Shown one piece after another: positions 13,110-60,538 of a DNA stretch of 64,000 nt (position 1 is its first letter; every line of letters starts with the position of its first letter). The stretch is from Centroscyllium fabricii (lineage: Eukaryota): the NCBI GenBank assembly GCA_051313645.2, contig JBNRSN020000005.1:303366001-303430000 (forward strand), given 5' to 3'. Under the pieces are notes generated by a model, which worked only from the letters and a program-made list of their open reading frames with translations, made no database searches and had not been told where the DNA came from. The position numbers and the translations under genes are program-made.

Positions 13110-13882
13110 GGCCCCAAAATTAGGGTGACCGCGGGAGGTTTTGGAGCCAGGTACTCACGCACACGGGCTCCGAATTGCAGGGAGCAGCTGTTTCCCGCTG
13201 CTACCTGTAATTCCGATGATGGCCAGTGGGGGATCGCGAGCTGCAGCAAGCTGTATCGCGTTCGCCTGCGCACCAGGAGGTGCGCAGTGGAATTCCAATT
13301 GTTTTCAGAGTTTTTTTTATCGGGGTAAGTATTGAAGATTTTACGCTGAAAAATATCAGCCGTAACGACCCTTTTTATCAGGTAAGTGTTTTATTTTAAA
13401 GAATGTAATTTTTTTTTTTTTTATTTTTTTTTTAAACAGGTTTTTACTTTTTTTAAACTTTAAAGACAGGTAAGTATTTTTTTAGGCCAGTTAAAAGCTT
13501 TAAAAAAAATCTAAATTTTTATTTTTTCTTTAAAATAGGTAATTTATGTTAGAGTATTGTTAAAAAATGGTGTTTTTTAATTTAATTTTTGTGTTTAGAT
13601 GTGTTTTTGAAGCTCTTCCTTTTCATAACTTACACAGATTTCTCCGTGTAAGTTATGAATGGAGGATTGCTTCCATTGATTGGCTCCCTGCAGATCACGT
13701 GGTCCCGTGCGAGATCTCCCACTAACTAAGATGTTGAGTTGCACCAGCAGGGCGCCTGGAGCTTGCAGCAGCTGTACAACTCGGGATTTCACATCCTAGA
13801 ATTGCAGAACGGCAGGAGCGCAGGGTAAGTGTACCTTGGAGGCATACACTCGCAGGAAGGCTCCGAGGCTAATATTTGGGCC
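13110..13882. mobile_element. Harbinger-like MITE, family A (GGCCC..AAATT TIR)
   Basis: ggccccaaaatt ... aatatttgggcc; GC-rich arms with an AT-rich core; related to 26272, 28590 and 56755. Confidence 0.7.
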
Positions 13883-14277
13883 AATGTTTTAGCCACATAC
13901 ACTAATTTTTGTAGGAAATGCCTTACATACACTCACAAAAGAGGTAGATGTGCATATTTACTTAAACTGTTACAGTTCAGGAATCAGGGAAGTAAAGCAC
14001 TTTCACAATAATCAAAACAACAATTCACATACTGCTTTTTGCCTTACTATTTTACCAACAAATTCACAAAAAGGTTGAAGTACACTTGCCTATGCCATGC
14101 GAATGCGTATTGAGGTCATATGCCTATTGCTCAATTTTGATTTATTAATCAGAAATGCAATTATCCACATCTGGATTCCCAATTATCCATATTTGCCGAG
14201 TGGCTAACATACTGGATAACACTGCCTTACACAAAGGTTGATGTTAAAACTTGCCTCTAATCAGCAGCAGCAGTCCA

Positions 14278-25468: not shown

Positions 25469-26271
25469 AAAGAGACCGTGGACTGCCAGTTCTTTGCTGG
25501 CCATCTATCCTCACTTGTCTTGCACGTCTTTTTTCCCCAAACTTTCCAGTTCTGGTTCAAACCGTTGCAAATTCAGTTGTGTGATGCAATTTCTATTGTT
25601 TGTTGAAGGGAGTCAACTGCTGCACATTAAGATCATTTTTCAGCATGGTGTGTTAGCGTGTAATAAAAAGGTTAAATGGCTTGCTTTGAACCATTGCTTA
25701 AACATAGCTTGCTGCAGTATGTTGACACTTCCAATAGCAATTCCAAGGGAGAAACCTCCTTTGAGGTCAAAAAACAAGCTGGGGAAAAAAGTATGAGTTT
25801 CCAAAACACGGCAATATGTGAAATGTCCAACAGTATCCCAGAAACAATGAAATCTGCACAAATATTCATTTGTGCAGACTGTATGTATCTATGATAAATT
25901 ATAGCAAAATAAATAATGCAATTGGAAAAGACTGGTCTAAGTACATAAAACTGACAGGAATTCTGATTAATTTAAACAGGTTTGATCTCTTGCACTTTCG
26001 GCAGAAATCAACTCAATACATGGCTATATTTCCTTTATATTTCCTTTGTTGGCTTGCACAGTTAGTTTTGTAGAAAAACACATTTCGCAACTTCCATTGT
26101 GCTAATTGAAGCCTACTCAACACAAAAAGCACCCCACATCTACAGATCTAAGAACACAGTGATTCTGGCAGATGTTTTCTTCTGGATTCCATGAAACAAT
26201 TTCAGAAGTAATCAGGAAATGTCGTAATCAAGTTAGCTAGATTTCATCAACAGAAATATGGCAAATATATT

Positions 26272-27036
26272 GGGCCAGAAATTCCGATCGCCCCGAGTGA
26301 GCACGCGCTAGGTACTCACCTGTAGGCCCATCGGAAGTGCCAGTTTCCGGCATGCACCGCACATGCGTGTGAAACCGCCACTTCCGATCCCCTGAAAGAA
26401 GGGGTCAGGGATCAGAACGCTTGCGTGTGCGCGGCAGCGGGTGCGCAATGCACTTGCAATTTTTCTCCACAGGTTTTTATCCGGGTAAATATGGAGAAAG
26501 ATACGTCTGCTTTTTTCATGCGCAAAGACCCCTTTTCAGCAGGCAAGTGGTGAATTAATTCAATTTAAAAAAATATTTCCACAGGTTTTTCATTTTGAAA
26601 TACTTTAAAGAAAGCTAAGTTGATTTTTAGCCCTGTTAAATACTTCAATTATATTTTTCAAAATTTTTAATTTTTGTTTAAAATAGCTAATTTATGTAAT
26701 TGATAGTTATTTAAAAAATTGTTTTTTAATATTTATTTTAAGATTTACTGAGGTTTTGGGGTTGTACTACCTGTATTCATAAGTTTGACAGGTCTTCCCG
26801 TCAAACTTATGAATGGAGCATTCTGTGCTCCGACTGGCTCTCCGCGGCCCACGTGATCCCGCGCGATATCTCGCACTAACTGCGCCGCTGGAATCCGGGA
26901 GTGCAGCGCGCCGGCAGTTCAGGAGAGCCCAACATCGGAAGCCCATGCGGGGGCACTGCTCAATGGCCGGCGCGGTAGGTAAGTGTGGGTTGGAGGCTTG
27001 CACTCGCGGGAAGCCTCCAAACCGAATTTCTGGGCC
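26272..27036 (+). mobile_element. Harbinger-like MITE, family A
   Basis: gggccagaaattcc ... ccgaatttctgggcc; colinear with 56755-60038 once the nested insert is removed. Confidence 0.85.
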
Positions 27037-28319
27037 ATGGTTTCAATGTTGTCAATCAAGTACAAACAGCGACACAAAGAAAAGCATTTTACTAATTGTT
27101 TTGAACATTGCACAAAGATACTTAACTGAATGAGCTTTATGTTTAAGCTAGAATAATCAGTTACATTTCAAAATAAGTTTTGATTTGAATTAATTTATTC
27201 GCTTGTTTAAGATTTACACCAAACAAAGGCTAGGTTCATGTAGGCTGGACTATTTTTTGGTAATGCTCTCCTGCTCCCATGGTAATGAAATCAACAAGAG
27301 AAATGTTTTCATTGGCTGCTAAATATTACTAGTATTATTTTCTACAACTCAGAATTTTATACAATATAAATAATGCTTCCCATGCCTCTGATACATCCTC
27401 CAACACTGCAGGCAGTGGCTTAGGCTCCACCAATGCCACTGTGACTCAAGACAAATCTTTCAGATGCTTTCCTTCCTTCGAGAAGCAAGTACTGCACCTC
27501 TGTGAGATTGGGAACCGCACTGGGGATCATCAAGATGGAACGCATTCTACGTTTGCAAGAGGAATAGAAAATTCAACAGCGAAACAAGTGAATCAATTTC
27601 AAATATGCTACATTGATCCAAAATTGTACAGAACTACTTGGAAATAGCATATGGTGCTCTGACAATAACCCAACTGTGGAGGAAATGAGAAGTCAGATGA
27701 TTTCACATAACTTTTTCCATTTGTTCAGCTAGCTGTGAAGACCAAACCTGCTTGTAGCATGTGCCAAGCCAAACAGTCTTTGACCCGACCACTGCAGCAA
27801 ACATTCTATGGGCCACCCGTTAAGTTCAGTAACGGCTGTCCACAGAGTAACATGAAACTGCAGAGATGCAAGAGATAGCAGGAACCTGGCTGGAACTGAA
27901 TAGGAGAGTGTTATACAATGCTGATTGTAGGAGCTGATGCAATAACTGAAGTTTGTAATGTTCTCTTAAGGTGGAAACATATGAAAGTTATGGTGGAAAC
28001 ATATGAAGGTTATTTAATGCAGACATTTTTTGAAACATGCAACAAAATTCCAGAAAACAAGGTTATACACTGGCACAACTGTAAATATATAAAGGCACTC
28101 TACAGCCCTCTGGACTAAACATACAGTTCAACAATTTTAGATCATAACCTCGGCCCCTACCACAAAAATATATTATATATAATTTCTCTCTTTTTTCAAT
28201 CCTCACTTTTGTCTGGGCTTTTTTCTTTTTTTTTCTTTTTTCTTTACTCTGCCAGAGCTGTTCAGAGCCATCCTGTGTTCCTTCAATTTCTCCTAATATC
28301 GCTTACCTTTCCCGCCTTC

Positions 28320-28589: not shown

Positions 28590-29289
28590 GCGATGTTGCG
28601 CTGTGCAAGCCTCCAACATGCACTTAACTTGCGCGCCGGCCGTTGAGCTGTAGGCCCACGTGGAATTCCGATGCGGGGCCCCCTCCAACTGCCGGTGCGC
28701 TGTGCTCACGTATCCCAGCGGCGCAGTTAGTGCGATGGATCATGTGGGATCACGTGGGCCACGGAGAGCCAATCGGAGCACAGAATGCTCCATTCAGAAG
28801 TTTGACAGGAAGAGCGGTCAAAAGTATGAAAACTACAAGCCCCAAAACATCACTAAATCTTCAAATATATATATTTTTTTAAATCACACTTTTTAAAGTA
28901 ACTATAAATTACATTAAATAACTATTTTAAACAATAATTTAAATTTTTGATAAAATTATTTATTTTTTCTGACGGGGCTAAAAATAAACTTACCTTTCTT
29001 TAAAGCATTTAAAAATAATAAACTTGTGGAAAAAATGTTTTTGAATTAATTCACCACTTAACTTGCTTTCCATCAGCCGTAACTTTTTCATACTTACCCA
29101 GACACAGAAGCTTATAAAAAAGCGGAAGTGCAGTGCGCACACGTTCCAACCTCTGAACCCTTCTGTCAGGGGATCGGAAGTGCCAGTTTCGCGCGCATGC
29201 GCTGTGCATGCATGAATCCGGCACATTGGATGGGCCTACGGGTGAGTACCCAGCGTGCACTCACCCGTTGGGACCCGAATTTCTGGGCC
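28590..29289 (-). mobile_element. Harbinger-like MITE, family A, reverse orientation
   Basis: Ends in gaatttctgggcc; the body is the reverse complement of 26272-27036. Confidence 0.8.
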
Positions 29290-29299
29290 ATTGCAACTT

Positions 29300-51618: not shown

Positions 51619-53757
51619 CTACGTTGGAGTGTGGGCGGGCTTTGGTGCGGTAGGGCGTCCGCGCTTTGGTGGCTGCGCGGGGACTGTTGCCTCACCCGCC
51701 ATTACGTGTGCCGGTTTGAGCCGGTCGATTGAGACAGTCTCAGCTCTGTTACCCATTTTAATTTGGAACGTTTTAGGTCCCGCCCGAAGCACTCTGTACG
51801 GTCCGTCGTACGGTGGCTGTAGTGGTGTTCGATGTGCGTCGTGGCGGACAAACACATACTTGGCATTCTGGATGGTGTCTGGAACACGTGCTACCGGCTC
51901 TCCGTGCCGGGCCACCGGAAGTGGTTTGAACGCCGCTGCCTGGTTGTGAAAGTCTTTGAGGCAGCGTTCGGCTGACCAGGGGGCGTTTGTTTCTGCCACG
52001 AACTCGCCTGGTACGGTTAGGGGTTGGCCATAGACTAGTTCCGCTGCTGAGGCGTGCAGGTCTTCCTTGGCCGCTGAACGCAGGCCGAGCATTACCCAGG
52101 GCAGGCGGTCGGTCCAGGTCGCGTCTTTGAGGCTGGCCCGCAAGGAAGCTTTGAAGGAGCGGTGGAACCGTTCGCAGAGGCCATTGGCCTGTGGGTGGTA
52201 GGCGGTGGTTCGGTGCAGGGTTGCCCCGAGGTCGTGGGCGATGGTTGCCCATAGGGTTGAGGTAAATTGGGGGCCCCTGTCTGATGTGATGTCGGTGGGG
52301 ACGCCGAAACGTGCGACCCAGGTGGCAATGAAGGCCCTGGCCAGGTCCGCGGTGGTGGTAGCGGTGAGGGGGACCGCTTCTGGCCAGCGGGTGCTGCGGT
52401 CGACCATAGTCATGATATGTGTATGTCCCCGTGATGGTGGTAGTGGTCCGACCAGGTCGATGTGGACATGGCTGAAGCGTCTAGCTGGGATGGCGATCGT
52501 TTCCAGCGGTGCCTTGATGTGCTTGTGCACCTTGGCGCGCTGGCAGGCATTGCAGGAGTTGGTCCAGGCGCGGACGTCCTTGCGCAGGCCGCACCAAACG
52601 AATCGCGCAGAGATGAGCTTTGTGGACGCGCGGACACCGGGGTGGGACAGGTCATGGAGGGTCTGGAAGATGTGTCGCCTCCATGCGTGGGGGACGACGG
52701 GTCTGGGCTGCGGGAGGGAGACGTCGCAGCGGACCTCCGTGGCTGTGGGCCCGTGTGCTACGGTGGCCAATAGCAGGCCAGTGAGGTTGGTAGCTGGGTC
52801 GAGCAGATCGGGGTTGGTTAGTTGGTCGGCCGCCATTTTGGTGTAGTCGACGGCCGTTTGAACGGAGTTGATGGTGGGGCGTGAGAGGCAGTCAGCGACC
52901 ACGTTGTCGTGGCCGGCCATGTGCTGTATGTCGGTAGTGAATTCCGACACAGCCGCGAGCTGGCGCTGCTGCCTAGCCGACCAGGGTTCAGAGATCTTAG
53001 CCATTGCAGACACAAGTGGCTTGTGATCCACGAAGGCTGTAAAGTGGCGGCCCTCTAGGAGGAAGCGGAAGTGGCGCACCGCGAGGTAGAGAGCGAGTAG
53101 CTCCCTATCGAAGGCGCTGTACTTGACTTCCGGGGGCCGGAGTTGTCGGCTGAAAAAGGCCAGGGGTTGCCAGGAGTCGCCTGTCCACTGCTCAAAGACT
53201 GCTCCGACGGTGCGGTCGGAGGCGTCGGTGGTGAGGGCTACTCTGGCGTTGGGCCTAGGGTGGCTGAGGAGCGTGGCGTTGGCCAGGGCGGTTTTGGTTG
53301 CAGTGAAGGCGGTGGAGGCTTCGGCCGTCCACTCGACCGCAGCCTTGTTGGACTGGCCGCGGGTGGCGTGGTAGAGGGGGGCCATGAGAGCGGCTGCTCC
53401 TGGGATGAAGCGGTTGTAGAAATTAACCATCCCAAGAAATTCCTGCAGCCCCTTGATGGAGTGCGGGCGGGGGAATTCCTGGACCGCCTGCACCTTGGAG
53501 GGCAGGGTTATGGCCCCGGTCTGGGAGATGTGGTGGCCGAGGAAGTCGATCGTCTCGAGGCCGAATCGACATTTGGAGGGGCTTAATATAAGGCCGTGTT
53601 CGGCCAGGCGGTTGAAAAGGGCCCTGAGATGGAGGAGGTGTTCCTGGGGGGAGGTGCTGGCCACGAGGATGTCGTCGAGATAGACGAACGTGAACTGCAA
53701 GTCCCGTAGGACTGAGTCCATGAGGCGTTGGAAGGCCTGGGCCGCGTTTTTGAGTCC
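51619..53757 (-). CDS. Gypsy RT-RNase H-integrase (continuation after a 1-bp insertion)
   Basis: GLKNAAQAFQR, YLDD, TDAS, DHKPL, HDLSH..CNAC, DLVGP/SDRG/ERFH (DDE), GPY module. Confidence 0.92.
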   Translation of the reverse strand, partial: GLKNAAQAFQRLMDSVLRDLQFTFVYLDDILVASTSPQEHLLHLRALFNRLAEHGLILSPSKCRFGLETIDFLGHHISQTGAITLPSKVQAVQEFPRPHSIKGLQEFLGMVNFYNRFIPGAAALMAPLYHATRGQSNKAAVEWTAEASTAFTATKTALANATLLSHPRPNARVALTTDASDRTVGAVFEQWTGDSWQPLAFFSRQLRPPEVKYSAFDRELLALYLAVRHFRFLLEGRHFTAFVDHKPLVSAMAKISEPWSARQQRQLAAVSEFTTDIQHMAGHDNVVADCLSRPTINSVQTAVDYTKMAADQLTNPDLLDPATNLTGLLLATVAHGPTATEVRCDVSLPQPRPVVPHAWRRHIFQTLHDLSHPGVRASTKLISARFVWCGLRKDVRAWTNSCNACQRAKVHKHIKAPLETIAIPARRFSHVHIDLVGPLPPSRGHTHIMTMVDRSTRWPEAVPLTATTTADLARAFIATWVARFGVPTDITSDRGPQFTSTLWATIAHDLGATLHRTTAYHPQANGLCERFHRSFKASLRASLKDATWTDRLPWVMLGLRSAAKEDLHASAAELVYGQPLTVPGEFVAETNAPWSAERCLKDFHNQAAAFKPLPVARHGEPVARVPDTIQNAKYVFVRHDAHRTPLQPPYDGPYRVLRAGPKTFQIKMGNRAETVSIDRLKPAHVMAGEATVPAQPPKRGRPTAPKPAHTPT

Positions 53758-53758
53758 G

Positions 53759-55381
53759 GTAGGGCATTCGGAGGAATTCAAATAAGCCAAATGGGGTAAT
53801 GACGGCTGTCTTAGGGACGTCCGCCGGGTGCACTGGTACCTGGTGGTAGCCCCGTACCAGGTCGATCTTGGAAAAGACCGTGCAGCCGGCTAGCCTTGCT
53901 GAGAAATCTTGGATGTGGGGGACGGGGTACCTGTCCGGGGTGGTGGCGTTGTTGAGGCTGCGGTAGCCTCCGCAGGGGCGCCAGCCGCCGCCGGGTTTGG
54001 GGGCAATGTGGAGGGGGGAGGCCCAGGGGCTGCTGGAGCGGCGGATTATGCCGAGTTGTTCCATGATGTGGAACTCGGCGCGCGCGATTTCCAGCTTGGC
54101 CGGGTCCAGCCTGCGTGCGTGGGCGTGGACTGGGGGGCCTGTGGTGGTGATGTGATGCTCCACCCCGTGCTTGGCCGTGCGAGCTGTGAAGGTGGGGTTG
54201 GTGAGGGCTGGGAACTCCGCGAGCAGCGTCGCGTACGTGTCGGAGTTCCGGGCTCGGCAGTGGGACGCTGCGTGGGTCTGGTGTGCCGGCCTTGTGGAGC
54301 ATGGGATGGTCGACATGTTGTGGATGTCGACCAGGCGGCGTCGGGTAACGTCGACCAGTAGGCCGTGGGCGCACAGAAAGTCGGCCCCGAGTAGGGGTAT
54401 TTTGACTTGTGCTGTGATGAAGTCCCACTTGTACGTGTGGCCTGCTAGCTTGATGGTAAGCTGGCGGGTGCCGAACGTAACTATCTCGGAGCCGTTTGCG
54501 GCTTCAAGTGGTGGGCCTTGGGTGCCTTGCTTGGTTTCTGCGGGGGAGGCTGGCACGATGCTGTGCTGCGCGCCTGTGTCGCAGAGGAAGCGGAGGCCTG
54601 AGCCGCTGTCCGTGACGAAGAGCAGTGCTCCGGAGCGGCCTACGGACATGGTGGGGCTTGGGCTGGTTTGGGGTTTGAAGGTGCGGGGCTGGACGCAGCA
54701 CTGCGCTTTGGCTTCGAACCTGGTGTGGTAGTAGCACCAGCCGGGGCCTGTGGTGCGTGGCTTTTTGTGGGTCCGCACCGCTCTGGGTTGGGACCTGGGG
54801 CCGGGCCTGGGGTGCGCGTAGTACTGCTCCGGTGGAGCGGCAGTGGTTTGGCGCGTGGCGGCTCGGGTGCGCTCGGCCCTCATCAGCTTGTCGGCCTCGT
54901 GGGCCAGTTGCTCCTTGGTATAGTGCTCCAGGACCGTCAGAGCCGGTCTGATGGAGGGGGGCAGTTTAAGGAGGAACAAGGCGCGTTTAATGGTGGCCGG
55001 GTCGCAATTAAGCGCTTCAAATTGGTCCCAAAGATCCGATGGATCTGCGTCCCCGAAATCGGGGAGGTTAATGAGCTGGCAGTCGCGCTCAAATTGGGTG
55101 GGGGTAAATTTTTCTAGCAGCGCGGCCTTAAGCGTTTTGTACCTGCCAGCAGTTGGTTCTTGCTGGATTGATGCCCACATTCGGTCGATCGTGGGCTGCG
55201 AAAGGGCCGCGAAGCGCAGGCTGTAATGATCGTCCCCCTGCATGCCATAAATGCGGTAGGTGTTCTCCGTGTTGAGGAACCAGGCCGCTGAACGGAGTTC
55301 CCAGAACTCAGGTAAGTTTGGGATTTGGCCGTAGTGCTGGCCCCGTCTGTGGTGGCGTGCTGTTTCGATCCCTGCTGGCAT
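53759..55381 (-). CDS. Gypsy Gag-protease-RT (N-terminal part; frameshift at about 53758)
   Basis: FW...AWF Gag start, CYYH-x8-CC zinc-knuckle variant, protease LCDTGA, RT SSSPWASPLH, FSKIDLVRGYHQ, KTAVITPFGLFEFLRMP. Confidence 0.9.
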
Positions 55382-55464
55382 GGTGGTTGCGATTCAAATG
55401 AGGCAGCTTGGCCCTCAGTCCTGCAGCGACTGCTTCATTGTTCCCTTGGAATTCGTTCCAAGTA

Positions 55465-56068: not shown

Positions 56069-57010
56069 AATTACAAAGCAAGTATGAGAACACCTCCTCC
56101 ATCAAGTAATTACATCAAGTAACTACAAAGCAGTATGAGAATACCTCCTCCAAGAAGCTTCGCAACATTTCTCCCCAGAGTTAGGCCGTGTCTGGATTTA
56201 CAACTTTAGCAGGAATGCTTCAGATTGGAGCTGCAATGCCTTTTTGAACAATTAAAACTCCAAAGATGAAGCCACTCCTTTCTCTCCCTTACACTATTTC
56301 TCAATGGTTTCTTATTCACGGAGACAAAAAGCAACAAAAAAAATTCACCGTGCTCACTTATCCTTAAAGTTCAAAAGAATAAAGAGCTCATTGTTGTCCA
56401 GGTGGCTTAAGTAGAGGATCAGAGAATGCCATTTTCAGAAGAACAATTGACAGATACCTGCACTAATTAACTGGAGAAACGCAGATGAATAGAAGCTTAA
56501 GTGGCCTAAACATATGACTGCAGTACATTGTAACCAGAGGAAATAGAAACATTCAAAATAGCTAAATTGAAAATTGAATAAGCCATGAATTAAAAACGCA
56601 AGTTTAGTTCCTAATTAACTATTTTTCCCTAAACCAAGCCAATCAGCAGAACCCCTGAGTTTTAAATGAATTTCTAGGCCAGTTACATTAGAATGCTGCA
56701 AAAGTGGCAAGGTGATGTTCACAAAGGATATTACAGTGCCACTTTTTTGTTAATGGCCCAGAAATTCCGGTCGCCCCGGGTGAGTACACGTCGGGTACTC
56801 ACCCGCAGGCCCATCCGAAGTGCCGGTTTCGTGCATGCACTGCACATGCGCGCGAAACCGGCACTTCCGATCCCCTGACAGAAGGGGTCAGGGGTTGGAA
56901 CGCGTGCGCAATGGACTTCCGATTTTACTTTTTACAGGTCTGTGTGCGGGTAAGAATGGAGAAAGATACGGCTGCTTTTTTCATGCGCAAAGACCCCTTT
57001 CAGAAGGTAA

Positions 57011-59566
57011 AGGCCCTGTCACACCTTGACGAATTAGCTAGCGCATGCCGACGTATGCAAATTTATCTAAAACGCTGGCGTTCGCTGAACTATCGATGTT
57101 TTTTTCAGTTTTGGGCGTATAATAGCATATTCATAACGAGTTGGACGTATGCATAACGTATTAGTAACGTACACAGAACGTATCGATAACTTACAGATAA
57201 CTTATACCAACTTATACCAACGAATGCTTAGCGTGTTGTCGGCGTTCACAACTTATGCCCAACGATAGTCTAACTTATGCATAGCGTGCGGCAGCGTTTC
57301 GCCGACGATCACGTGGCGTAGCCTATTCAAAGGCTGTCACTGGACGATTCAAATCATAACACTAGACATCGAAGTGCAGCTCCACCCACCCAAACTGATT
57401 CCAGTTCTACATCACAATCTGCCTTGCCAAGTCTCTACAACATCACCATCATGCCTAGGAAAAGTTCTAAGAATGCTGCCAAGAAGTCTCCTGGCCGTGG
57501 ACGCGGACGCATGGAGGATCCATCATCACCCACACCCTCCCCATCACGCTCACCCTCTGACGGAGAGGATGCTGGTTCCAACGCCTCTCGGGCATCGTCG
57601 GTGACATTGATAGCTGCGTCCGTGGCCTCCACCTCCTCTCAGCCAACCCTTGCGAAGAAGAGGGCCAAGAAGACACAGTTTTGTCTTGCTGTTGAAGACG
57701 AGCAGCTCATGTGCGATTTCCTTTGCGAGAACGCCATCCTCTGGGACATTAAGAAGACTGACTACCGGAGGGTGGACAAGAAGGCAAAGCTCTGGGAGGA
57801 TCAGGCAAAGGCTATGGGGAAGACTGTCGAGCGCCTTCAAGGGTGGTTCAAGTCCCTGCGAGACACCCACACCCGTCTCGACAAGAAGAAGAGCGGTGAT
57901 GGCGCCCCGGAACTGACAGAGAGGGAGCAGTGGGTGAAGGCAAAGTTCGGCTTCCTCAAGACTGTGGTCCGCCATCGTGCTGAGCCCGTCAACAGTGTAA
58001 GTATAAACACATATTAATATCAATACTAATATTTATTTATATTAGTTTTACTGTACTTTGCCTCGTATTTTTGCATTGTATTTTACTAATCAATTGTCAT
58101 AATTGCAGGTAAAGGAAACCATTGCAGCACACAGCGGGGACCTCGAGGCTGGCGAGGCTGCCTGTGCAGAGATGATGTTGCTTGACGACAGCACACCCTC
58201 CCCTGTCCCCAGGGGGAAGCGTGGCCAGGACAATGACCAGCTGCAGTCACTCCAGAAGAGGGTGCACGAGTCTGTGGAGCTCCTCAAAGGTCTCGCACAG
58301 CCTCAGCCCATCACAGCCACCTCAGCCTTCGCCAACTACGTGCGTGACAGCCTGGTCAGCATGTCGATGCGCAACTTCCGGAAGGCAAGGTCGCGCATCA
58401 ACACCATCCTCACTGAGCTGATAGATGAGGAGAATGATGAAGAACCCCCCATTTACGTGCGATCAAATTCAGCACCAGCTACCTACACCCCCACGGCGTC
58501 GGAGATGTACCAGCAACCTCCCCACATGTGGAGACACAAGGCACCGGCTGCGTCAGTCTGGGGCTCACAGACATGTGGACCGTACATGCAGCAGCCACTG
58601 CAGCCACAGTACCAACAGCAGCAGCCTCAGTACCAGATGATGCCTCCTCCCCCTCAGCATGTGTTCCAGCCTCCTCCTCCTCTGATCACGCAGCAGCCAA
58701 GCCTCGCCTCTTCATCTGCTGCTATAGGCTCGGCTGGCCAGGTACTGAACCAGAGCCAAAGCAGCTTTGACACTGATATATTTGGATTCTCAGGAGTGCT
58801 CAACATGTCCAGCGGTCCTGATGCTGCAAGCAGCCCGTCTGGGGAGCTGAAGACACCTCCACCATCAGAGCACTGAATAAAAGGTGACATTGTTTTGGCC
58901 ATGTTTGTGCCATTTTGTATATACGTTTTTAGACCATTGTTATCATGTTTCATTATTTAATAAAAGTTGAGCAAACTCTTGATATTTGTTGATGTTATTG
59001 TTTTAATATTTAAATCATAAACAATAATTAACAATAATAAATTCATACACTTTGAAAAAGGTATAATAATATAATGTACATGTATATTGAAAAGTGGATA
59101 ATTGAAAAAAAGGCTTTTTAAGATGTTCATTTCAGGAGCTGTAAGTTAGAAACACGTTCAGTAAGTTCTGTGGTCGTCCGGAAGACGTCAAATACGTCTA
59201 CATACGTCAATATGCGTTGGAGATACGTTACACATAGGTTCAAAGCACGTTACTCATAGGTTAGAAATAAGTTCCGGGTACGCTAGACATTATCTCGACG
59301 TATTTTGACTTATGACTAACTTACAAGTAACGTGTGTCAACGATCGCCTAACGTGCCTACAACTTATGGCCAGCGTATGCGGAATGTGTGAGTCATACGC
59401 TGGATACGTCGAGAAATTTTGTGCATGCTCAAAATTTCTCGACTCAACGACGTATGCCAGCGTGCTCTTAACGTATACAAAACTTACCCATAACGTATCC
59501 GACGTAAACCAGCGTTTTCGCCAAATTTGCATACGCTGGCTAAAACGTCAAGGTGTGACAGGGCCT
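57011..59566 (+). mobile_element. Non-autonomous PIF/Harbinger transposon (2556 bp), 21-bp perfect TIR, TAA TSD
   Basis: TAA|AGGCCCTGTCACACCTTGACG ... CGTCAAGGTGTGACAGGGCCT|TAA; subterminal ACGTA/AACTTA-rich arrays. Confidence 0.92.
57451..58876 (+). CDS. Two-exon MADF (Myb/SANT-like) DNA-binding protein with a BESS-like motif and Q/P-rich tail, about 437 aa; exons 57451-57996 and 58109-58876
   Basis: MADF signature ENAILWD..TDYRRVDKKAKLWE..LQGWFKSLRDTHTR..W..FGFL; phase-0 intron GTAAGT(57997)...TACTAAT branch...TTGCAG(58108) joins ORFs 57424 and 58103 in frame; stop TGA overlaps AATAAA. Confidence 0.85.
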
Positions 59567-60053
59567 TAAGTGGTGAATTTATTCAATTTAAAAGATTTTT
59601 TCCCCACAGGTTTTTTATTTTTAAATACTTTAAAGAAAGGTAAGTTTATTTTTAGCCCTGATTATTTTTTTCAAAATTTTTAATTTTTGTTTAAAATGGC
59701 TAATTTATGTAATTGATTGTTATTTTAAAAAATGTGATTTAAAAAAAAAAATCTTTTGAAGATTTACTGAGATTTTGGGGCTTGTAGTATTCATAAGGTT
59801 GACAGGTCTTCCTGTCAAACTTACGAATGGAGCATTCTGCTCTCTGTGGCCCACGTGATCCCACTCGATATCTCGCACTACCTGCGCTGCTCGGATCCGG
59901 GAGCGCGGCGCGCCGGCACTTCAGGAAGGCCCCGCATCGGGATTCCATGCGGGGGCACAGCTCAACGGCCGGCACGCTAGGTAAGGGTAGGTTGGAGGCT
60001 TGCACTCGCAGGAAGTCTCCAACCTGAATTTCTGGGCCATTTATTTTACATGT

Positions 60054-60339
60054 TGTGATGAACCATTTGGTGTGGTTCACACTGTGCTATTATTGTATAT
60101 AGTTTGTGTTAATATATCTGTACCTTTCTGGATTATTGTATATAGTTTGTGTTAATAAATCTGTACCTTTCTGTAAGGACCTGGACCGGCTGACCCCGCC
60201 TCTGGGTATGAGTATAAAGGAGAATGCTCCGCCCACCTGACTCTCATTCCGGGCGGACTCATCGCAGACTAGGTTCAGTTCTTTGTAAATAAAAGCCTTT
60301 CGTTAGAACAAGCTGTCGGCTCTGATTTGAGGCTCTTCA
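60054..60339 (+). mobile_element. Solo LTR (near-identical to 6948-7233)
   Basis: TGTGATGAACC...GAGGCTCTTCA. Confidence 0.85.
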
Positions 60340-60340
60340 A

Positions 60341-60538
60341 TTTTATTTACAAAGAACTGAACCTAGTCTGCGATGAGTCCGCCCGGAATGAGAGTCAGGT
60401 GGGCGGAGCATTCTCCTTTATACTCATACCCAGAGGCGGGGTCAGCCGGTCCAGGTCCTTACAGAAAGGTACAGATTTATTAACACAAACTATATACAAT
60501 AATAGCACAGTGTGAACCATACCAAATGGTTCATCACA
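60341..60538 (-). mobile_element. Inverted partial copy of the same LTR
   Basis: Reverse complement from TGTGATG through AATAAAA; lacks the internal duplication and the segment after the polyA signal. Confidence 0.85.

Follow-up and report, generated by a model that had tools for sequence, protein, structure and literature searches.

A MADF-only PIF/Harbinger element and its transposase-only, two-gene and MITE relatives in the genome of Centroscyllium fabricii

Transposition of PIF/Harbinger elements requires both a transposase and a Myb/MADF protein, which are also active when placed on separate plasmids; subterminal motifs are bound by the Myb/MADF protein, which also takes the transposase to the nucleus (PMC2836001, PMC9710019; these and the other publications are cited from the accessible parts of their texts). 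Because solo-ORF Harbingers are already in print for a sea krait and for Caenorhabditis inopinata, the helper-only layout as such is known. In the sea krait L. colubrina, Harbinger-Snek is present as 269 full copies, 2,263 transposase-only copies and 452 copies with the DNA-binding gene only, plus MITEs, and its solo variants are considered likely large deletions that may be non-autonomous (PMC8437027). Harbinger-1M_cIno of C. inopinata comprises 19 MADF-only elements (14 intact), five DDE-only elements (one intact) and one dead two-gene element; only the MADF side has expanded, and trans-complementation has been proposed (PMC13668399). The words 'purifying' and 'in trans' are absent from the accessible text of the former paper, as are 'purifying' and 'nonsynonymous' from that of the latter. 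In their accessible parts, a survey of teleosts (PMC9179366) contains no single-ORF Harbinger, and an account of an expansion in a newt (PMC5741667) describes no solo classes. In the literature covered, with Repbase and subscription journals outside its scope, we found no selection test on solo-ORF Harbingers and, including the accessible parts of PMC8437027 and PMC13668399, no report of matched ends between halves or of re-fusion.

The element described here (57011..59566, 2,556 bp) lies in the window, i.e. the whole stretch of 64,000 nucleotides of Centroscyllium fabricii DNA that was analysed. It is bounded by perfect 21-bp TIRs (57011..57031 on the + strand, 59546..59566 on the - strand) and flanked by a TAA TSD on the left (57008..57010) and on the right (59567..59569). 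A TWA TSD is the rule for PIF/Harbinger and an AT TSD for ISL2EU (PMC4482050), which is further defined by a YqaJ exonuclease (PMC9179366); with its 3-bp TWA TSD and MADF gene, the element falls outside ISL2EU. The TIR, which starts with A, agrees with the PIF/Harbinger pattern of TIRs shorter than 60 bp starting with A or G. The family shares with Harbinger3_DR and Ping/Pong the TWA TSD, the short A/G-starting TIR, the subterminal repeats and the combination of DDE_Tnp_4 and Myb/MADF genes (PMC4482050, PMC2836001, PMC9710019), DDE_Tnp_4 being carried by same-TIR elements elsewhere and missing from the window copy. The canonical two-gene form measures about 4.1 kb, and that of the present family is comparable. 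Unlike canonical two-gene PIF/Harbinger elements, however, the window element is without a transposase, and most coding copies of its family have a single gene. Within 57011-59566, the only ORFs of at least 170 aa are the two MADF exons, which confirms the statement of an earlier reading, made from the sequence alone, that there is no room for a DDE nuclease; the element is not an autonomous two-gene Harbinger.

Inside the left TIR lies an array of short words at 10-11 bp spacing (57051..57278), and the right subterminal region (59138..59545) contains the same short repeats. The commonest 6-mer of the element ends occurs 12 times in the ends and never in the gene, and by analogy with Harbinger3_DR these words are likely candidate binding sites of the MADF protein. 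The observed/expected CpG ratio is 0.84 for the element and 1.4-1.7 for its ends, compared with 0.35-0.86 in 4-kb blocks of the window.

The MADF gene lies on the + strand. Its exon 1 (57451..57996, 182 codons, ATG at 57451) encodes a basic N-terminus and a MADF domain, with a Pfam match to MADF_DNA_bdg (PF10545) at residues 93-156 (57727..57918; E 2.5e-7, above the curated cut-off). A phase 0 intron of 112 bp (57997..58108), which runs from the donor GTAAGT after 57996 to the acceptor TTGCAG before 58109 and contains a branch-like TACTAAT at 58084-58090, separates it from exon 2 (58109..58876, 255 codons plus the stop at 58874-58876). The spliced product has 437 aa and no internal stops, and two AATAAA signals are found at 58876 and 58959 (58876..58964). 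The anatomy proposed by the sequence-only reading, namely 21-bp TIRs, TAA TSD, two-exon 437-aa ORF, splice signals and polyA signal, is therefore correct. The intron ends are identical in the 26 elements parsed, and homologous proteins of other animals are in frame across the 57996/58109 point. The splice joint that the earlier reading had proposed to look for (57996->58109, GT..AG) is present in contigs of all four of four sequencing runs from other organisms (three organisms, two studies); their RNA status was inferred by the tool, most of the pieces are 82-99% alike to the element, and none comes from the host species.

Exon 2 encodes a conserved helical region followed by a disordered Q/P/S tail. 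MADF-BESS proteins are defined by a BESS domain at the C-terminus. The proposed MADF-BESS identity stands for its MADF half; no Pfam BESS match at E<=1 was obtained in exon 2 and six homologues, and a pair of predicted helices occupies this position. Structure prediction gave three confident helices at exon-2 residues 41-107 (58229..58429, + strand, pLDDT about 80-90) and then a disordered tail. A fold search with the exon-2 model returned generic helices only (best Z 5.2, rmsd 5.7), a PDB sequence search returned nothing under E 0.19, and a modelled complex between transposase exon 1 and the exon-2 helices, run without alignments, scored 0.01. The helices at 58229..58429 are put forward as a candidate transposase-binding region. 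It should be noted that a helix that is basic from priapulid to hagfish is acidic in MADF subfamilies C, D and E (L061, L107, L137), where the acidic tail is lost; this may possibly reflect a changed partner specificity or a loss of binding.

MADF-BESS transcription factors, and domesticated genes such as NAIF1, MSANTD and ADF-1L (PMC11893794), likewise combine a MADF domain at the N-terminus with a helical module at the C-terminus. In contrast to these, the present gene has no Pfam BESS match and is multi-copy, mobile and TSD-flanked, with no sign of a fixed host gene; a domesticated gene of the NAIF1/MSANTD type would be single-copy without TIR or TSD, and here there are thousands of dispersed copies with ends. 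It is very unlikely that the MADF protein serves mainly to repress or activate the family, MITEs or host genes instead of acting as a transposition subunit. A MADF domain with a low-complexity tail would suit such a role, the conserved helix drifts in the C/D subfamilies, and in a fish a MADF protein of Harbinger origin regulates an adjacent gene (PMC11893794), but thousands of dispersed, TSD-flanked young copies are the behaviour of a transposon and not of a host gene, and the tail is predicted to be disordered and varies in length among elements. Of the suggestion that the tail resembles an activation domain, the predicted disorder is what remains, nothing having been found that shows an activating role, and the idea of a mobile transcription factor found no support beyond the MADF domain itself.

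By its insertion, the element has split a host MITE of 727 bp with AT flanks (ISL2EU-type TSD; 56754..60039), which is not part of the Harbinger. The family of this MITE has internal hairpins and three more copies in the window, at 65-81% identity (26271-27037, 28603-29290 and 13436-13883). The window also contains a Gypsy-like LTR retrotransposon (51619-55393, - strand) with long gag-pol frames of 656 and 756 aa, and, at 60135-60500, two 160-nt arms that are 100% complementary and 46 nt apart, with a 43-bp tandem copy at the left edge, which are a very young MITE or fold-back. The neighbouring CR1 LINEs presumably resemble those of cartilaginous fish; the matches of one of them in a sequence search were classed as Eukaryota, with Chordata and Mollusca the most frequent.

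In the 7.2 Gb genome, the window element is a young member of a large PIF/Harbinger family. The best 40 of 4,165 DNA candidates are all 97-99% copies over at least 1.7 kb, the window copy included, and the best 150 of 7,838 protein-match candidates are 95-100% identical to the MADF protein. Thirty close copies were fetched and 29 could be cut out whole; the spliced MADF frame is open in 23 of the 29, and an identical 3-mer stands on both sides in 25, being TWA in 23 of these. The exact TIR has 12,972 matches genome-wide (6,492 + 6,480; control, 0), and near-identical TIRs bound four classes of element, i.e. MADF-only, transposase-only, two-gene and MITE.

The window copy has lost the whole transposase gene (about 1.6 kb, including a TATA-like box and a polyA signal) at a junction at 59130..59151. 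The word spanning this junction has 1,940 exact matches in the genome, the two words marking MADF loss in transposase-only elements have 1,144 and 589 (1,733), and the word at the transposase 3' boundary has 2,121; these counts are lower bounds for copies, and some of the words also occur in shorter derivatives or tandem repeats. The element is therefore not the single-copy internal deletion that would have spoken against the earlier interpretation, and, being multi-copy with both ends and one intact gene, it is a solo-ORF Harbinger variant. An unselected sample was drawn from 85 TIR-anchored sites on one contig (from the first 100 TIR matches), of which the first 60 were taken with their content ignored. 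It had 10 MADF-only loci (2.55-2.81 kb), 11 transposase-only loci (2.44-2.52 kb), 39 loci without a family gene (MITEs mostly 545-780 bp) and no two-gene locus, the sample being biased against the two-gene lineage because a single base sets most TIRs of that lineage apart. The MADF-only and transposase-only classes each run to about two thousand copies, mostly intact. The suggestion that the window element may be half of a bipartite system is supported by these same-TIR transposase-only partners.

Family members are often nested in or directly beside each other (L014, L028, L077, L139, L145, L155, L158, L217, L218), apparently through use of TWA sites in or next to the TIRs and subterminal regions. 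One MITE of the 775-bp type (L087) carries an inserted, unrelated Harbinger transposase element. A first look for DDE_Tnp_4 gave 72,583 candidates genome-wide, of which 150 were scored, indicating a very large Harbinger-like load; generic DDE_Tnp_4 loci were considered as partners and rejected, as the best 30 share neither DNA nor a MADF gene with the element and belong to other Harbinger families. In four sequencing runs from organisms C and F (X10, X13, X17, X18), the summed depth of the element ends exceeds that of the gene by a factor of hundreds to thousands, reflecting very large MITE expansions of the family there. In the DNA of four other organisms, pieces at the MADF-only junction have loose ends at 59137 with the transposase side present, and none of the listed pieces bridges the junction with 31 letters on each side.

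The transposase-only elements carry, on the opposite strand, a two-exon ORF of 429 aa with a DDE_Tnp_4 match (E 1.3e-29). This ORF is intact in 26 of the 33 copies parsed, and the catalytic words are kept in 25-27 of 27 copies. The two solo classes have both ends in common and overlap by about 180 bp of AT-rich sequence (58955..59138 in the window element, 91-97% identity), as expected from reciprocal deletions of a convergent two-gene element. The AT-rich stretch could also be the overlap through which the halves recombine.

The junction words of a long two-gene layout have two matches and one match in the genome. One of these loci, L124, is a two-gene element of 4,233 bp with both frames open, the left part of which is 98.5% identical to MADF-only subfamily B and the right part 98% identical to transposase-only copies; the other is a chimeric MADF-only element. 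As L124 is nested in both solo clades, it is most simply, and likely, explained as a two-gene copy re-fused through the overlap. That the two-gene form was almost gone, as these one or two matches had suggested, was overturned by a second junction word, of a compact layout noticed from L071, with 354 matches, of which 170 have transposase exon 2 at the expected spacing. All 20 compact loci fetched were two-gene elements of about 4.0-4.2 kb (two were longer because of nested MITEs), with both frames open in 14 and a nearest-neighbour distance of 0.5%, as young as the solo copies. The same lineage also gave rise to MADF-only derivatives through two additional deletions, seen at 18 of the first 30 loci. 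The TIR search proposed by the sequence-only reading hence led to the transposase-only partners and also to an intact two-gene sister lineage that it had not foreseen, and with such a source in the genome the split state is not established as obligate. The two-gene elements L203-L222 are streamlined: the transposase intron has 106 bp instead of 197 bp, about 185 bp less lie between the genes, the transposase stop abuts the MADF 3' UTR, and the Q-rich repeat of the MADF protein is enlarged (459-505 aa).

Outgroup-rooted protein trees were built with 13 solo and 8 two-gene rows each, L071 being left out of the MADF tree. In both, the rows of this genome all group together in a single clade with respect to the outgroups used (support 99/93 and 100/99), and the first split separates the compact two-gene lineage (100/100 and 100/99) from the solo lineages. 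Support for the solo clades is 87/92 (MADF-only) and 86/93 (transposase-only), neither of them starred, and the main MADF-only clade lies outside the two-gene lineage. The closest MADF proteins from outside are those of Priapulus caudatus (78% over 321 aa) and of a pipefish (80% over 257 aa), and both are closer to the window protein than subfamily C of the same genome is (77% in exon 1, 59% in exon 2); the closest transposase is that of the shrimp Palaemon carinicauda (87%). The horizontal transfer that the earlier reading had proposed to look for is thus a likely source of the family, among aquatic animals, as judged from these sequence relationships.

Selection was examined by pairwise and fixed-versus-private counts on 36 of 40 intact copies, grouped in four subfamilies, leaving out 8 broken copies. 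Overall dN/dS between MADF-only subfamilies ranges from 0.1 to 2.0 by pair and is near 1 for the comparisons of the window's subfamily, so that alone it would look neutral; split by gene part, it is not. The fixed changes of the MADF-only lineage include no stops in 240 as against 10.7 expected (P 2e-5), and 21 indel blocks separate the subfamilies in the codon alignment of intact copies. Exon 1 shows 42 N / 35 S along MADF-only branches, where neutrality would give an N share of 0.71-0.76 (p 5e-5 to 2e-3), and is therefore under purifying selection there; the neutral dN/dS named beforehand as an argument against function is not what the lineage displays. In exon 2, subfamilies A and B differ by 54 N / 5 S (p 2e-4 to 3e-3; 5e-5 against private changes), and their introns differ by 1.8%. 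This excess of amino-acid change is significant in one of four comparisons, B-D being not significant and D-C leaning towards purifying selection. The two-gene lineage leans to excess in the same exon (43 N / 8 S, p 0.04-0.19), so the excess is not specific to the split state. Between two transposase-only subfamilies, residues 1-45 show 10 N / 0 S (concentration p 3e-5), three of four comparisons being significant. The 12 N / 11 S counted along transposase-only branches give a weak signal of purifying selection (p 0.47 when private changes are the reference, 0.01-0.06 with the site ratio).

These counts bear on the reading that MADF-only copies are passive deletion derivatives which ride on the two-gene lineage and have open frames only through their youth. 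Such a lineage is at hand (at least 170 matches, 14 of 20 copies intact and young), and has shed MADF-only derivatives twice; the private changes in the window's subfamily include stops in 4 of 90, and shorter PIF/Harbinger elements are reported to be better movers (cited in PMC13668399). For the lineage, however, the absence of stops from its fixed changes and the purifying selection on exon 1 largely refute this reading; the position of the main MADF-only clade outside the two-gene lineage and the poor match of the C/D ends to that lineage also speak against it, and we consider it unlikely.

The window's junction is found in nine of the 10 unselected MADF-only elements, some of which are only 73-88% identical to the window element, and the identity of the right ends falls along with that of the MADF gene (A-B 94%, A-D 84%, A-C 81%). 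Since the junction is common to diverged subfamilies and the right ends diverge with the gene, the loss of the transposase gene predates the MADF-only subfamilies, which differ by up to dS 0.27. The 'recent arrival' read from retained CpGs consequently holds for this insertion, the close copies being 0.1-1.3% from the column majority by region, and not for the family. The selection signal might instead stem from two-gene parents that have since disappeared or persist in other hosts, if the junction right end had recombined onto their MADF genes or if the subfamilies had entered by repeated horizontal transfer. Recombination between classes is visible (L123, L124, and a tandem duplication in common with L126), close relatives of the family occur in distant phyla, and exact-word searches miss old, diverged two-gene ancestors. 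Nevertheless, this course of events appears rather unlikely, given right ends that diverge in step with the gene, the single clade formed by all copies of this genome, the long-layout words found at one or two places only, and the absence of two-gene elements at the first 100 matches of the transposase 3' end on one contig (83 assigned by an adjoining MADF-loss word, 17 read at 16 loci).

The ends of the solo subfamilies can be paired. Those of MADF-only A are 96-98% identical to those of transposase-only L106 and L152, and those of B are 96-98% identical to those of L145 and 92-97% to those of L084; the right ends of C/D are 91-95% identical to those of L144 and L069. Exchange of ends by recombination could also account for this pairing. 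The two-gene ends are 77-95% identical to those of A and B, and to C/D about 60% on the left and 78-85% on the right. To the window's subfamily they are 88-95% identical, so the two-gene lineage could supply both proteins to the window copy. For the C/D subfamilies, with ends so unlike those of the two-gene lineage, the split may be obligate, as far as end sequences indicate.

The window element is, in our view, probably a recent non-autonomous MADF-only PIF/Harbinger element of a long-lived lineage, the MADF protein of which is likely to work and which is likely trans-complemented by transposase-only or two-gene copies. The starting point would have been a single horizontal arrival of a two-gene element with convergent genes, about 4.2 kb long, from which reciprocal deletions would have produced a MADF-only and a transposase-only half, each of which is proposed to have stayed mobile because it kept both ends. 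The window copy would have been moved by transposase from other copies, its lineage providing working MADF protein in turn. Our best guess is that the MADF frame was kept by selection because the protein of a given subfamily would prefer ends resembling those of that subfamily. The interface may consist of the rapidly changing exon-2 helices together with the N-terminus of the transposase. A more tentative and rather doubtful extension is that the C/D MADF-only and T1/T2 transposase-only elements are a truly segmented DNA transposon, with two mobile halves, no two-gene form, matched ends, an interface co-evolving under positive selection, and occasional re-fusion via the overlap.

Harbinger-Snek of Laticauda resembles the present family in layout: both have a vertebrate host, marine horizontal transfer and all four classes together. 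They differ in that here the solo classes are about equal and have their own clades, a selection signal, matched ends and a likely re-fusion. MADF-only elements with a TWA TSD and DDE-only elements are shared with Harbinger-1M_cIno; unlike in C. inopinata, both halves are here present in thousands and mostly intact, and an intact two-gene sister persists. What the present family adds is the separate solo clades, the selection on the MADF-only lineage, the paired ends and the likely re-fused copy.

A single element of this kind is ordinary, and the point lies in the pattern of the family. The genes of DNA transposons are expected to decay inside a host, because, by the textbook argument, their proteins act in trans and give no edge to the copy that produces them. 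For sea kraits and a nematode, copy numbers of helper-only Harbingers are available, and complementation is termed hypothetical (PMC8437027, PMC13668399). The present family offers evidence, at the level of sequence, that a helper-only lineage may keep a working gene through several subfamilies, and it provides natural matched and mismatched sets of helper, cutter and ends for cross-complementation. If the segmented reading is true, the C/D and T1/T2 elements would be a natural test bed, with many subfamilies in one vertebrate lineage, for selection on trans-acting transposon proteins.
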